Below, piece by piece: positions 37,517 through 53,508 of a stretch of DNA of 64,000 nucleotides. This stretch comes from Bacillota bacterium (GTDB lineage Bacteria > Bacillota > Dehalobacteriia > UBA4068 > UBA4997), in assembly GCA_021771915.1 (NCBI GenBank), contig JAETNY010000009.1, positions 40,038-104,037 of the forward strand, given 5' to 3'. The notes under the pieces were generated by a model. The model saw nothing but the letters and a program-made list of their open reading frames with translations, was not told the DNA's origin and did no database searches. Made by a program: the position numbers and the translations under genes. Every line of letters starts with the position of its first letter. Position 1 is the stretch's first letter.

Positions 37517-37731
37517 AATATGACAATTTAAGCTTTGGCAGCGGTTAAAAGATTTTTTTATTTTTGTCAACTTTACAGAAAAAACCCTTGACTTTAATCA
37601 GGCATAGTGCTATACTGAAACAAGTATTCAAGATAATAGCTTATTACGCGCAATAAACCAGAAGTTGATTGATTTGGCGATATTTGTTCATTTTCTATGG
37701 GTACGAAAATTTTTGACAGGAGGTACCCAAA

Positions 37732-37947
37732 ATGAATAACGGTACAGTAAAATGGTTCAACGCAGAAAAAGGATTCGGTTTCATTGCTAATGATGAAGGC
37801 GGCGATGACGTTTTCGTACATTTCTCTGCCATTCAGACTGACGGCTATCGCACTCTGGACGAGGGACAGAAAGTTACTTTTGAAGTTGAAGCTGACCCAA
37901 AAAACCCCAGCAAACTGCGCGCAGCTAATGTTTGCAAAGTTGGCTAA
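37732..37947 (+). CDS. Cold-shock protein (CspA family)
   Basis: [35 protein letters not shown]. Confidence 0.95.
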
Positions 37948-37974
37948 ACCAGCTATTTAATTAAACAAAATACA

Positions 37975-38010
37975 AAGGAACTGTTGAAAATCTTCAACAG
38001 TTCCTTTTTT
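37975..38010 (+). terminator. Rho-independent terminator after csp
   Basis: aaggaactgttgaa-aatc-ttcaacagttcctt followed by TTTTTT. Confidence 0.8.
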
Positions 38011-49745: not shown

Positions 49746-50411
49746 ATGAACCTTTCAATAAAAAAAGCCATGCGCAGCTATTTTGCCGGCAAACTGCGGC
49801 TTGGTATATTTTGGTTCGCGCTTTTCTGCGTGGCCGGCTATGTACAGATTGAACTGTTTTATGGTCCACTGGACTGGTTCTATGAGCGCTATCCCTACAT
49901 AACCGGTATAATTGGCGGCCTGAACCTGACCGCTTTTGGCATCAGCCTTGGCTATCTGCTGACGCGGCTGGTAACCCGGCTGAATTACACCGGCCGCCTG
50001 CGCAGGGATTTAAGCCGCATTTTACCGTCTAATGAGGCCGCCGACCCATATGCCGTGCTGGACGCTGATATCAAACGCCAGCCCTGGCCGCAGGCCCCTG
50101 TTTATCTTGGCGAGCGCTGGCTGGTAATGCCCGGGCATGCCCTGCGGCGCGACCACATTGTCGGCATTTTCTATGAAGAACTGCACAAATCCTTTTTATC
50201 AACCAGAGTTCGCCTGACAATCGTGGACGAGTTGGGCGGCGAAATGTATCTGGATATCAAGCCCGACCTGCACCCGGAAATTTTTCAGACGTTGTCCAAA
50301 CTGCACCCGGCCGCCACAAACGCCGACCATCGGGTTTTGCGTTCCCTGCCGGAGGGCAGCGGTTTCCGCAGTCTGCGCCAGAATAATGAGCCGCCGCTCT
50401 CCCTCAATTAA
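49746..50411 (+). CDS. Hypothetical membrane protein
   Basis: AAAGGAGGA Shine-Dalgarno before the ATG at 49746. 2-3 predicted transmembrane segments. Confidence 0.45.
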
Positions 50412-51337
50412 TCGGCAAACATCGGCGTGGACAAATAGCGCTCCCCACTATCCGGCAGCAGCGCCACAATGGTTTTGCCCTGATTTTCCGGGCGTTTAGC
50501 CAGCTGTGCCGCTGCCCAAACCGCCGCGCCGGCGGATATTCCCACCAGAACACCCTCTCGCCGCGCCAACTCCCTGCCGGTAGTCATAGCGTCCTCATCA
50601 GTCACCGTTATAATTTCATCATAAATTTGCGTGTTCAGAATTTCCGGCACAAAATTAGCGCCGATACCCTGAATTTTATGCGCCCCGGCCTGACCTGCGG
50701 ACAACATCGGCGAACCTGCCGGCTCCACCGCCACCACTCGCACAGACGGATTATGCGCTTTCAGATAAGCGCCCACACCGGAAATAGTACCGCCAGTGCC
50801 CACGCCTGCCACAAAAATATCCACCTGACCGTCCGTGTCCTGCCAGATTTCCGGCCCCGTGCTGCGCTTATGCGCCGTCGGATTGGCCGGATTAACAAAC
50901 TGGCCGGGGATAAAGCTATGCGGCGTGTTGGCCGCCAACTCCTCGGCCTTGGCAATCGCACCAGCCATACCCAACGCCCCCTCCGTCAAAACCAACTCCG
51001 CGCCATAAGCTTTAAGCAGATTGCGCCGCTCCACACTCATAGTTTCCGGCATCGTCAGAATAACACGCCAGCCGCGCGCCGCCGCTACCGCCGCCAGACC
51101 AATACCGGTGTTGCCGCTGGTCGGCTCAATAATCACCGCATCGGCCGGCAATTTGCCCTCTGCTTCAGCTTCCGCCAGCATAGCCGCCGCCACCCGGTCT
51201 TTAACACTGCCGGCCGGGTTAAAATACTCCAGCTTAGCCAGAATTTTCGCGCCCAGCCCCTGCGCCTGATTATAACGCGCCAGTTCCAAAAGCGGCGTAT
51301 GGCCAATTAAATCCATAAAACTTTTAGCAATCTTCAT
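50408..51337 (-). CDS. cysK: Cysteine synthase A (O-acetylserine sulfhydrylase)
   Basis: [25 protein letters not shown].. PLP-enzyme motifs. Confidence 0.92.
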
Positions 51338-51391
51338 ACAATCACCCTCCTAATATTAAAAAGCTTTTTACCTAGTTATTTGCTAGGTTTT

Positions 51392-51420
51392 ATTATAAGC
51401 TTTTACCGTCATGATGTCAA
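51392..51420 (-). promoter_or_regulatory. cysK promoter (TTGACA-17-TATAAT on the minus strand)
   Basis: -35 is the complement of 51415-51420 and -10 is the complement of 51392-51397. Confidence 0.55.
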
Positions 51421-51453
51421 GCTGATTTAGCAATTTTTTTATGTATATACTAT

Positions 51454-51481
51454 TGCTTTTCCGCCAGCTTTAATATATAAT
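51454..51481 (+). promoter_or_regulatory. Divergent plus-strand promoter (TTGCTT-16-TATAAT) driving the repeat-containing leader
   Basis: Read directly from the sequence. Confidence 0.45.
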
Positions 51482-51492
51482 ATATACATATT

Positions 51493-51636
51493 TAATCACT
51501 AAGTTCTGCCTGCGGCCTTTGGCCTTGGCAATCACTAAGTGTTCAGTAGACGATTCCATCTGGCTGCGCCCGATGGATAAATTCACACTAAGTTCTGCCT
51601 GCGGCCTTTGGCCTTGGCAATCACTAAGTGTTCATT
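51493..51636 (+). repeat. Two identical 49-nt direct repeats (51497..51545 and 51588..51636), each containing the sub-repeat AATCACTAAGT twice; the 42-nt spacer forms its own hairpin
   Basis: cactaagttctgcctgcggcctttggccttggcaatcactaagtgttca occurs twice. Each unit contains the palindrome-like core GGCCTTTGGCC. Confidence 0.85.
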
Positions 51637-51690
51637 TAGCTGTTTTGTTTGGTGGCCGCACTCGCCCGTGTTGGCAGCAGCCAAACAGAA

Positions 51691-51751
51691 GCCGGCAGAA
51701 AAATCGGTTTGGCATAAACCGGTTCTTTTGCCGGCCTTTTTTTATGACGGC
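51691..51751 (+). terminator. Leader terminator/attenuator hairpin followed by a U7 tract, 25 nt before the downstream start codon
   Basis: GCCGGCag..CGGUUUggcauAAACCG..GCCGGCcuuuuuuuau. Confidence 0.65.
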
Positions 51752-51780
51752 CATATCTAATATGAAAGGATTTGAGCAAT

Positions 51781-52113
51781 ATGACTCCATGGCAGCCCCA
51801 GCAGGACAAAATACTTTTAGCGGCCTATGCTAAACTCCCCCAGGGAACCTCCGCCCAACGAATTTATGACAATCTGGTGCTGGTGGTTATCGTGCAGCGC
51901 GCCAGCGGCTGCATTGAGCGAGCAGAGATTTCTTTCGTCACCCAGGCGGCGCAGGATTTTCTGGCCAGCCTGCTGCAAGGCTATGACCTGCACCAAGGCG
52001 CAGAACCGCTGATACAGCTTTTACAGGAGGTTTATTTTGGCCCTCTGAAAAAGGCGCTGCTCTCCGCCGTCAAAACGATAGCGGCTCAATACGCTGAAAT
52101 TAGCGAAAAATAG
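51781..52113 (+). CDS. Hypothetical protein (111 aa), first gene after the leader
   Basis: AAAGGA Shine-Dalgarno before the ATG at 51781. The ORF track uses a TTG at 51772. Confidence 0.45.
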   Translation: MTPWQPQQDKILLAAYAKLPQGTSAQRIYDNLVLVVIVQRASGCIERAEISFVTQAAQDFLASLLQGYDLHQGAEPLIQLLQEVYFGPLKKALLSAVKTIAAQYAEISEK

Positions 52114-52131: not shown

Positions 52132-53508
52132 ATGGCATTAAGCACCACCCATATCATCAGTATCGTTTTAACGCTGTTAATTATCATGTCACTTGGTGTT
52201 TTGTCCGGCCGCAAGGTAAAAAACGCCGCCGATTTCAATACCGGCGGCAAAAGCGCCGGCGCGCTGCTGGTGGCCGGCATTATCACCGGCACGCTGATTG
52301 GCGGCAGTTCCACCATCGGCACGGCAGAATTGGGCTTTAATTACGGCCTCTCGGCCTGGTGGTTCACGTTGGGCGCTTCGCTGGGCTGCCTGTTGCTGGC
52401 CCTAATCTATGCCCGGCCAGTGCGCCGCAGCGAATGTACCACTATACAGGAAATTATCAGCACCGAATACGGCAAAACCGCCGGCCTGGTAACCTCAATC
52501 CTGACCGCGATTGGCATTGTGCTGAACATTGTGGCGCAAATTCTGGCCGCCAACGCCCTTTTAGGCTCCATGTTCGGCATGAACCCTTTCTGGTGTTCGG
52601 CAATCAGCGTTATCATCATGGTCTGTTATGTGCTTTTTGGCGGTATCAAAGGCAGTGGTCTGCTGGGGCTGGTCAAACTGGGGCTGCTTTATATGGCGAC
52701 TGTGGCCTGCGGCCTGCTGGCTATTAAAATGCATGGCGGTCTGGCCGAATTTTATGCCAGCCTGCCCAAGGTGCAGTATATGAATATGTTCGCGCGCGGT
52801 TTCGGCACCGATTTTGGCGTAGGTCTGAATGTGGCGCTGGGCGTAATCTCTACCCAAACCTATATTCAGGCGGTGCTGGTCGGGCGCTCCAATCATGAAG
52901 CCGTCAAGGGCTGCCTTTTTGCCGCCACGCTGACGCCGCCGATTGGCTTTTTCAGCCTGTTTGTCGGCATGTACATGCATATTTATTTTCCGGAAATCGC
53001 CGCCGCCGAGGCTTTCCCCAGCTTTATCCTGCATTTCCTGCCGGCGCCGCTGGCCGGCATTGCGCTGGCCACCCTGCTGATTGCCGTGGTCGGCACCGGC
53101 TCCGGCATGGCGCTGGGCTGCGGCACCATCATCAGCAACGATATCTACAAAAACTTCATCAACCGCAACGCAGACGGCAAACAGCTGCTGTTGGTATCCC
53201 GGCTGATTATTCTGCTCACGCTGGTTTTATCCGCCGCATTCACCCTGGGCAACCTTGGCAGCGCCATTTTAAGCTGGGGTTCCATGTCTATGGGGCTGCG
53301 CGCCGTGGTGCTGCTGGCGCCTATGACCACCGCGCTTTTCCTGCCCGGCAAAATTCACCCCACCGCCGCCATCAGCAGCAGCGTTATCGGCGTGCTGGTT
53401 ATGCTGCTGGGGCGCGGCCTGCCCCTGCCGTTTGACACGCTGTTTCTTGGCCTGCTCGCCTCCATTATCATACTGCTGGCCGATTTTCTGCTGGGCAAAA
53501 AGCGCTGA
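52132..53508 (+). CDS. Sodium:solute symporter family transporter
   Basis: 458 aa with about 12 transmembrane segments and an SSF-like N-terminus. Confidence 0.8.
   Translation: MALSTTHIISIVLTLLIIMSLGVLSGRKVKNAADFNTGGKSAGALLVAGIITGTLIGGSSTIGTAELGFNYGLSAWWFTLGASLGCLLLALIYARPVRRSECTTIQEIISTEYGKTAGLVTSILTAIGIVLNIVAQILAANALLGSMFGMNPFWCSAISVIIMVCYVLFGGIKGSGLLGLVKLGLLYMATVACGLLAIKMHGGLAEFYASLPKVQYMNMFARGFGTDFGVGLNVALGVISTQTYIQAVLVGRSNHEAVKGCLFAATLTPPIGFFSLFVGMYMHIYFPEIAAAEAFPSFILHFLPAPLAGIALATLLIAVVGTGSGMALGCGTIISNDIYKNFINRNADGKQLLLVSRLIILLTLVLSAAFTLGNLGSAILSWGSMSMGLRAVVLLAPMTTALFLPGKIHPTAAISSSVIGVLVMLLGRGLPLPFDTLFLGLLASIIILLADFLLGKKR

Follow-up and report, generated by a model that had tools for sequence, protein, structure and literature searches.

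Short sequences that recur in bacterial intergenic regions are known from several kinds of system. In leaders bound by TRAP, HutP or PyrR, a short motif is repeated with its number and phase conserved across orthologous leaders; riboswitches in general are conserved, covarying structured elements 5' of the genes that they regulate. Repetitive extragenic palindromic (REP) sequences and bacterial interspersed mosaic elements (BIMEs) occur as many dispersed copies, and the REP elements of REP/RAYT systems begin with GTAG. Miniature inverted-repeat transposable elements (MITEs) and insertion sequences (ISs) have terminal inverted repeats, target-site duplications and parent or related copies, and the 'nearly precise excision' of Tn10 leaves remnants. 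Ectopic Cas1-Cas2 integration reportedly takes place at palindromes and gives 'neo-CRISPR' loci (CRISPR, clustered regularly interspaced short palindromic repeats). Here we compare with these systems the leader of a two-gene operon in a 64-kb stretch of contig JAETNY010000009.1 (the window; positions count from its first letter). The region studied, 51453-51790, lies between the minus-strand gene cysK and the plus-strand operon, which encodes a DUF3870 protein and a sodium:solute symporter, and it carries two identical 49-nt repeats.

Our preferred reading, to which we assign a probability of about 0.78, is that the 49-nt repeats are a young, strain-variable insertion and not a sensor, and that the operon would be controlled by a conserved core at 51639-51743. 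Two things make up the finding: an indel that varies at population level, formed by two nested hairpin insertions that each duplicated the target, and a narrowly distributed, undescribed leader of attenuator or riboswitch-like type.

Leader repeats and their alleles among strains

A repeat finder recovered the two 49-nt copies that the original prediction had placed between promoter and terminator, at 51497-51545 and 51586-51634 on the plus strand, with 100% identity and a start-to-start distance of 89 nt. A 45-nt version of the repeat, allowing up to 3 mismatches, matched only these two sites in the window, where shuffles expect 0. The copies fold as imperfect hairpins of -16.6 and -18.4 kcal/mol. 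The segment between them forms its own hairpin (-12.4 kcal/mol), as had been proposed, with a length of 40 nt (51546-51585) and not 42 nt. What had been described as four evenly phased boxes are three full copies of AATCACTAAGT, starting at 51494, 51530 and 51619, and one partial box, only CACTAAGT, after TTCA (51586). The CACTAAGT boxes start at 51497, 51533, 51586 and 51622, a spacing of 36/53/36.

We compared contigs from other samples (designated, like all loci below, by L numbers) that encode exactly the window's DUF3870 protein or exactly its symporter protein. The intergenic length between cysK and the DUF3870 gene in these contigs was 318, 354 or 441-443 bp, and the leaders fell into three forms. 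Form 0 (L008/L040, L041 and L044) has no insert: box T, the native target AATCACTAAGT (51494-51504, plus strand), abuts GTTCATTTAGCTG, with a single T followed by G/ATTCATTTAGCTG. T is likewise the sole copy of the box in L001, the nearest or sister species (94% protein identity). Form 1 (L007, L012 and L016) reads T-H-T followed by GTTCATTTAG and differs from Form 0 by exactly a 25-bp insert and exactly an 11-bp duplication of AATCACTAAGT. The insert is the quasi-palindrome H (TCTGCCTGCGGCCTTTGGCCTTGGC), whose first copy in the window (51505-51529, plus strand) makes the apical stem of the repeat hairpin; the duplicated T that flanks it as an 11-bp target-site duplication lies at 51530-51540 on the same strand. 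Form 2, found in the window and ten contigs, extends Form 1 by exactly 89 bp, composed of X (GTAGACGATTCCATCTGGCTGCGCCCGATGGATAAATTCA; 51546-51585, plus strand), a 40-bp hairpin-forming insert present only in this form, and a second 49-bp unit, CACTAAGT-H-T-GTTCA. H occurs zero times in Form 0, once in Form 1 and twice in Form 2. Repeat copy 1 consists of CACTAAGT, H, AATCACTAAGT and GTTCA; copy 2 is a duplicate of the whole Form 1 hairpin, and the two copies flank X. H and X have 11 of 13 positions of a core in common (TCTGGCTGCGCCC versus TCTGCCTGCGGCC; the core is also written TCTGSCTGCGSCC). The Form 1 samples were SRR26864366, SRR24359755 and ERZ13410454, and the Form 0 samples ERZ17755019 and ERZ13657768.

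Each insert is enclosed by an exact direct duplication, 11-bp AATCACTAAGT around H and 49 bp around X, as in the target-site duplications of MITEs and ISs. The repeated boxes appear to be just such duplications, as two nested insertions would leave. In the first step, H would have inserted at the native palindrome CACT-A-AGTG and the 11-bp AATCACTAAGT would have been duplicated; in the second, X would have inserted and the entire 49-bp hairpin from step 1 would have been duplicated. We infer this order and mechanism from the allele sequences. The duplicated target was itself a palindrome or hairpin in both events, first CACT-A-AGTG and then the whole 49-bp hairpin. Because Form 2 duplicates a segment that already holds H and both boxes, its ancestor must have resembled Form 1, and a two-step history would follow from the structure of Form 2 itself, even if the Form 1 contigs were collapsed.

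Strains carry 0 or 2 repeats, and possibly also a single copy. De Bruijn assembly at k < 49 can collapse an exact 49-nt repeat, and Logan assemblies with k=31 are the source of two of the three Form 1 contigs, so that Form 1 is less secure as a living intermediate than the other two forms. The same property could be extended to the claim that all length variants are assembly artefacts of one true allele, to which we give next to no credence. Forms 0 and 2 differ by unique sequence that is flanked only by an 11-bp repeat, which no assembler collapses, and each form was recovered from several independent samples and by different assemblers (ENA SPAdes contigs and NCBI metagenome-assembled genomes (MAGs)) on distinct haplotypes of single-nucleotide polymorphisms (SNPs). 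The sister species L001 also has Form 0.

Conspecific contigs are 0-42 SNPs apart over 3.3 kb, compared with about 176 for L001. The alleles are not monophyletic and do not track SNP haplotypes. Form 1 contig L012 is nearest to Form 2 contig L009 (7 differences over 3.3 kb), Form 0 contig L008 is nearest to Form 2 contigs L010 and L011 (9 differences over the same length), and a C-to-U variant of the terminator arm is common to all three Form 1 contigs and to L009, L014 and L039 of Form 2. This scatter is compatible with the insert having been lost repeatedly, through recombination or slippage at the direct repeats, or else with exchange among strains. Both insertion steps would be reversible through such recombination or slippage, and this reversibility would explain 0-, 1- and 2-copy alleles on different haplotypes.

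In L001 the leader runs from ATATTTAATCACTAAGT directly into ATTCATTTAGCTG, with one box and no repeat, and H and X are absent from L001 and all more distant orthologs. Full boxes number 1, 2 or 3 in conspecific strains and one in L001, and there are none in L002, L003, L022, L004, L025, L027, L029 or L030. The original prediction had seen in the repeats part of a riboswitch, or in the CACUAAGU boxes protein-binding sites in the style of TRAP, PyrR or HutP, and had named absence from orthologous leaders, coupled with dispersed REP-like copies elsewhere, as an outcome that would speak against this. The repeats are indeed absent from L001 and all other orthologous leaders, and vary between 0, 1 and 2 copies within the species; dispersed copies were not observed in the window, the fetched loci or the database sequence searched.

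A functional role, with the boxes or hairpins serving as binding sites for a multimeric protein or as a tandem riboswitch, could draw on the fact that the copies are 100% identical, structured and directly 5' of a terminator, and are transcribed if the promoter is right. As in TRAP, HutP and PyrR sites, a short motif is repeated in a leader 5' of a terminator. UUCUGCC in each repeat moreover complements GGCAGAA of the terminator 5' arm, which bears on the suggested antiterminator pairing between repeat 2 and the terminator; the complementarity exists, but minimum-free-energy and ensemble folds leave it unused. Conspecifics with identical operon proteins carry 0, 1 or 2 copies, and L001 and all other orthologs lack the repeats yet keep the terminator and the hairpin P1 described below. 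Unlike TRAP, HutP or PyrR sites, the copies here come from duplication and are absent or single in orthologs and many conspecifics, and neither motif number nor phase is conserved across orthologous leaders. The box spacing is irregular, the leader has no Rfam match, and the box sequence is neither a (G/U)AG triplet series nor the PyrR hairpin motif. The population data have largely refuted a functional role for the repeats already, and we consider it highly improbable.

The conserved leader core

Orthologous loci were sought by a protein-guided scan in which each species was represented by one genome; six turned up, in MAGs of uncultured Peptococcaceae/Bacillota. Twelve leaders from about eight lineages were compared in all (the window plus L001-L005, L019, L022, L025, L027, L029 and L030), with orthologs at 59-94% DUF3870 identity. 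Their shared parts follow one order: promoter, variable 5' segment, GCUG, P1, AGCCGGC, terminator and U-run. The variable segment is 11-53 nt long in the orthologs and, because of the insert, 157 nt in the window. GCUG (51639-51642, plus strand, as are all parts of the core) is invariant in 12/12 leaders and is followed by UUUU; we propose it as the 5' strand of an antiterminator that extends P1. The hairpin P1 (51643-51690), defined with RNAalifold and a covariance model, has an outer helix UUUUGUUUGG/CCAAACAGAA, an inner helix, a loop of about 6 nt that is usually YUGCCN, and a 3' internal loop. The terminator (51691-51743) was delimited by folding and conservation. Its 5' GCCGGC lies at 51691-51696, its 3' GCCGGC at 51730-51735 and its U7 at 51737-51743, and the AGCCGGC that opens the 5' arm is invariant among the 12 leaders. 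The nested GC-rich hairpin with U7 that had been noted earlier is borne out as an intrinsic terminator: the hairpin (51691-51736) folds at -28.6 kcal/mol (z = -4.96), a U-run follows the GC-rich stem-loop as in rho-independent terminators, and the arrangement is kept in the orthologs. The broader proposal of a riboswitch or attenuator layout stands for the terminator, which lies in a conserved attenuator-type leader, and is not supported for the tandem repeats as part of that layout, since orthologs lack them.

P1 is a conserved, covarying structured element 5' of the genes it would regulate, as riboswitches are. Its stem takes the forms GUUUGG/CCAAAC, AUCCGG/CCGGGU, GUUCGG/CCGAAU and GUCCGG/CCGGAU, and seven of its pairs show compensatory changes by RNAalifold and pair counting. 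In the alignment, 94.8% of P1 cells are paired versus at most 58% in slid controls, and none of 500 shuffles reached the observed covariation score. A covariance model built from the 12 leaders matched each ortholog locus once, at 74-115 bits, and found nothing further in the window. Strain SNPs that turn GCCGGC into GUCGGC (in the 5' arm of L007 and L009, and in the 3' arm of L015) keep the terminator pairing by G-U wobble and leave CGGC untouched. The core always lies upstream of the DUF3870-symporter pair, whatever the upstream neighbours.

The Rfam scan that had been proposed as a check matched the leader to none of the 4227 families described there. Positions 51300-51850 of the window gave only sub-threshold microRNA- or terminator-like noise at E up to 10, and nine ortholog loci gave 0 matches at E up to 0.5. 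A scan of the full 64 kb at gathering score reported cspA and a single tRNA only, both elsewhere.

GCUG can pair with CGGC (51693-51696) in 12/12 leaders. When leaders were folded without the terminator 3' arm, the minimum-free-energy fold of most orthologs extended P1 through GCUG:CGGC over a 2-nt bulge; in full-length folds the terminator was dominant, with pair probabilities of about 1.0. This suggests that GCUG:CGGC forms an antiterminator by extension of P1. That helix and the GC-rich base of the terminator would be mutually exclusive, and the base must reach the U-run for termination; an extended and stabilised P1 would then act as antiterminator, and the terminator would form otherwise. 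The leader would be a default-off attenuator, in which a putative effector, either a metabolite or an RNA-binding protein, stabilises P1 and brings about read-through. We infer both the effector and the GCUG:CGGC switch. The invariance of both 4-nt strands fits a dual-pairing constraint, and the core is a candidate for a previously undescribed attenuator or riboswitch-like leader.

Two other pairings were considered. An antiterminator between the P1 3' strand (GCCAAACAGA) and the inner terminator (UCGGUUUGGC) is available in the window and L022 and not in L002, L003 or L004, and was rejected as a conserved structure. A possible pseudoknot would join UGCC of the P1 loop to GGCR in the terminator arm; L027 and L030 lack the loop motif, and no covariation is seen.

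Several points weigh against our reading of the locus. Since only about eight lineages carry the core, the statistical support from covariation is modest, at an effective sequence number of 2.5. All eight GCUG/CGGC nucleotides are invariant, which leaves that pairing without covariation support; the 4-bp helix is weak, with one G-U pair and a 2-nt bulge, and the terminator always wins at equilibrium. Promoter, start site, termination and read-through are all predictions, and the effector is putative only. On the side of the insertion, Form 1 comprises three contigs, in two of which the 49-nt repeat may be collapsed, and the sequence searched yielded neither a donor copy of H or X nor a transposase or a further insertion site.

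Whichever of the three forms is modelled, pair probabilities for P1 and the terminator stay at 0.94 or above. On these predictions the insert folds by itself, as a separate domain, and does not disturb the conserved elements, so that any influence on expression is probably small or modulatory, through an added 5' stem-loop and a freed GCUG strand. In modelled Form 0, the native CACUAAGU is paired to AUUUAG-CUG, which leaves GCUG in part sequestered (P = 0.4-0.9); in modelled Forms 1 and 2, CACUAAGU pairs with its duplicated copy, and the upstream pairing of GCUG is about 0.05-0.4. P(GCUG:CGGC), computed for truncated transcripts, is 0.04 with Form 0 and climbs to 0.38 with Form 2. On the strength of these folds, the insert might be a contingency-like tuning module. 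Its copy number of 0, 1 or 2 would alter operon expression, with a 5' stem-loop making the mRNA more stable or with CACUAAGU withdrawn and GCUG freed, and selection would maintain its recurrent gain and loss through the direct repeats. Three alleles in independent samples, scattered over haplotypes, would suit such a module, as would the lower sequestration of GCUG in Forms 1 and 2, the likelier GCUG:CGGC pairing in Form 2, and the unrelated 5' hairpins that L004, L027, L029 and L030 carry at the same position. The modelled differences are however modest and come from equilibrium folding alone, homologous recombination between strains explains the haplotype scatter equally well, and Form 1 may in part be assembly collapse; we think a tuning module unlikely.

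The hairpins of these deeper orthologs (2181-2207 in L004) are their own and lie between the -10 element and GCUG, where the window has the insert. Several of them hold GUUUGGUG, either within the loop or close to it; this sequence is similar to the window's own P1 5' strand.

Other DUF3870 loci showed further arrangements. The distant loci L032-L038 had no match to the covariance model. At 44-48% identity, L032 and L034 (both at 2310-2590) have a gap of about 260 nt before the symporter gene. The gap has no Rfam match and contains a hairpin that looks conserved (UUUGCGGAGGGUCCC...GGGCAAAAAUCCGC) as well as a stem followed by a U-run, like a terminator; possibly it is another leader for a transporter of this kind. 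At 42-45% identity (L035-L038, about 2001-2950), the gene that follows DUF3870 encodes a dCTP deaminase (PF22769) and not a symporter, and so DUF3870 is not tied to the transporter. In L022, about 95 nt of very AT-rich sequence (about 1906-2000) with repeated ATATTTTTAA units lies between the terminator and the ribosome-binding site, and a second promoter is possible there.

Flanking genes and promoters

The gene neighbourhood described in the original prediction, with a divergent cysK and an operon for a small protein and a Na+:solute symporter, agrees with the Pfam assignments (PALP, PF12986 and PF00474). The DUF3870 gene (51781-52113, plus strand) starts with ATG at 51781, encodes 110 aa and matches PF12986 at E = 8.5e-20; its ribosome-binding site, GAAAGGA, is at 51764-51770 on the same strand. 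The 458-aa transporter of the sodium:solute symporter family (SSS/SSF), encoded at 52132-53508 on the plus strand, matches PF00474 at E = 1.5e-22. Against NCBIfam it gave a superfamily-level match alone, under every equivalog cut-off. The AlphaFold2 model of the DUF3870 protein (mean predicted local distance difference test score, pLDDT, 90.6) had no significant fold match in the PDB by Foldseek (best E = 0.03), and a PDB sequence search and NCBIfam gave no functional assignment. A literature search returned nothing relevant on DUF3870 or on riboswitch candidates tied to solute symporters. With the symporter assigned only at superfamily level and DUF3870 having no significant structural neighbour, no ligand for the leader can be proposed.

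The operon promoter is a predicted sigma-70-type promoter on the plus strand (51453-51481), read from the sequence as TTGCTT at 51453-51458, a 17-nt spacer and TATAAT at 51476-51481, and transcription would start near 51488. A simple promoter scanner skipped it because its -35 fits the consensus at just 3/6 positions. The layout TTGnnn-17-TATAAT is kept in all ortholog loci, 11-53 nt 5' of the conserved core, which makes the plus-strand promoter claimed earlier likely. A 14-nt inverted repeat, TATGTATATACTAT / ATAATATATACATA, with 93% complementarity (51440-51453 and 51477-51490), brackets the -35 and -10 elements of this promoter. It is kept in the closest relatives only (L001 and partly L022) and could be an operator.

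On the minus strand, cysK (50408-51337; PALP by Pfam) is the divergent neighbour of the leader, and the promoter scan placed its own promoter outside the leader at 51392-51420, TTGACA-17-TATAAT with 12/12 consensus positions. A palindrome, ACCTAG-N7-CTAGGT, lies at 51370-51388, between this promoter and the cysK ribosome-binding site. L001 keeps it with a symmetric change (ACCCAG...CTGGGT), and it also occurs in L002 and L003. It is probably a repressor operator, perhaps for a CymR/Rrf2-type regulator, or a hairpin in the 5' untranslated region (UTR) of cysK. Elsewhere in the window, at 37613-38007 (plus strand), a cspA thermoregulator (Rfam RF01766) scored 85.6 bits (E = 3.8e-20), above the gathering score, in what is apparently a Peptococcaceae genome; the RF01766 model spans the whole cspA mRNA, so the match may merely mark a cold-shock protein gene.

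Origin of the inserts and comparison with known systems

We searched for further copies of H and X. With H (25-mer) and X (40-mer) as queries, at up to 3 mismatches or by blastn-short, only this site was found in the window and about 150 kb of fetched loci. Exact scans for H in JGI metagenome contigs and IMG/VR, and for the X core in IMG/VR, gave 0 matches, and among phage and plasmid records the insert had no significant BLAST match (all at E >= 0.1). A degenerate H/X core had two extra matches in the window, both within coding sequence, which we attribute to chance. Tandem Repeats Finder reported no CRISPR-like or tandem array in the window. The many dispersed copies typical of REP sequences and BIMEs were thus not encountered in the window or the fetched loci, and neither were the terminal inverted repeats with parent or related copies of MITEs and ISs, H being a mere quasi-palindrome (TGCC..GGCA, GGCC..GGCC).

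A mobile or remnant palindromic element and replication template-switching are the main candidates for the origin of the inserts. In the first case a family of small mobile palindromes, derived from MITEs, REP sequences or ISs, would be dispersed in the genome and insert with target duplication, and H and X would be either copies of its members or what near-precise excision left of them. The exact 11-bp target duplication around H and the common 11/13 core of the two hairpins would be expected of such a family; X starts with GTAG, like REP elements, and the series of remnant and empty-site alleles resembles what Tn10 leaves on nearly precise excision. The family would have to be reconciled with the lack of any other H or X copy in the sequence searched, with duplications of 11 versus 49 bp, which are unlike the work of a single transposase, and with the weak terminal inverted repeats of H, and we hold it as a possible but tentative explanation.

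Template-switching would make H and X templated insertions at a hairpin, by microhomology-mediated processes resembling fork stalling and template switching (FoSTeS) or microhomology-mediated break-induced replication (MMBIR). The polymerase would stall at the palindrome, copy a short stretch elsewhere and re-prime 5' of the palindrome, thereby duplicating it. This accounts for a duplicated segment that is exactly the palindrome or hairpin in both events, and a duplication of variable length fits a structure-guided process and not a fixed-ruler enzyme. No donor template was found in the window and fetched loci, however, clear microhomology was not seen at the junctions, and such events are poorly documented in bacteria; on this evidence we find template-switching somewhat improbable.

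A more speculative view is that a hitherto undescribed palindrome-targeting mechanism acts at cruciform borders, duplicating the palindrome (11, then 49 bp) and adding a hairpin insert, in a cassette that also tunes an orphan riboswitch by freeing GCUG. Its variants could be ectopic Cas1-Cas2- or casposase-like integration in the gut population, or a new tiny mobile hairpin family. We judge this very unlikely.

If the insertion reading holds, a striking, perfect and structured leader repeat can be a strain-level indel and not a sensor, a lesson for annotation, and population data from metagenome assemblies settle such questions fast. The 0/1/2-copy allele series is a clean natural case of nested insertion with duplication of a palindromic target, and if more sites exist the insertion mechanism is open to study. 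The leader composed of GCUG, P1, AGCCGGC and the terminator is a candidate orphan riboswitch or protein-dependent attenuator of uncultured gut Peptococcaceae and related Bacillota, and its effector would point to the transporter substrate and to the role of DUF3870.

Among known systems, the inserts are like transposon target-site duplications, 'nearly precise excision' remnants, MITEs and REP sequences in that a short palindromic insert lies within an exact direct target duplication, in an intergenic leader, and the empty site is precisely restored in other strains. They differ in occupying a single site, with no dispersed copies or parent element found in our searches, in a second duplication of 49 bp, which is far above the typical length, and in insert lengths of merely 25 and 40 bp. 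The step from Form 1 to Form 2 also recalls CRISPR spacer acquisition and ectopic Cas1-Cas2 integration, with a repeat duplicated and a spacer-sized insert placed between the copies, 3' of an AT-rich region, and with both events at palindrome borders. A molecular ruler, however, is at odds with duplications of 11 and 49 bp and with inserts of 25 and 40 bp, and the inserts are mutually similar hairpins, unlike captured foreign DNA, so ruler-based integrases, ectopic Cas1-Cas2 among them, fit poorly. Two repeats and one spacer-like segment do not amount to a CRISPR array, none of which occurs in the window, where cas genes were not searched systematically, and no protospacer matching X or the insert was found in phage or plasmid collections.

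The core is closest to the terminator/antiterminator riboswitches and protein-dependent attenuators of Bacillota. It differs from them in matching none of the Rfam families, in a small candidate aptamer of about 50 nt with one hairpin, in a switch helix without covariation, and in a distribution so far of about eight lineages of uncultured Peptococcaceae/Bacillota. It shares with them a covarying hairpin directly 5' of a strong terminator in the 5' UTR of a transporter operon, and an invariant GCUG that can pair with the base of the terminator 5' arm, so that two exclusive structures are possible.

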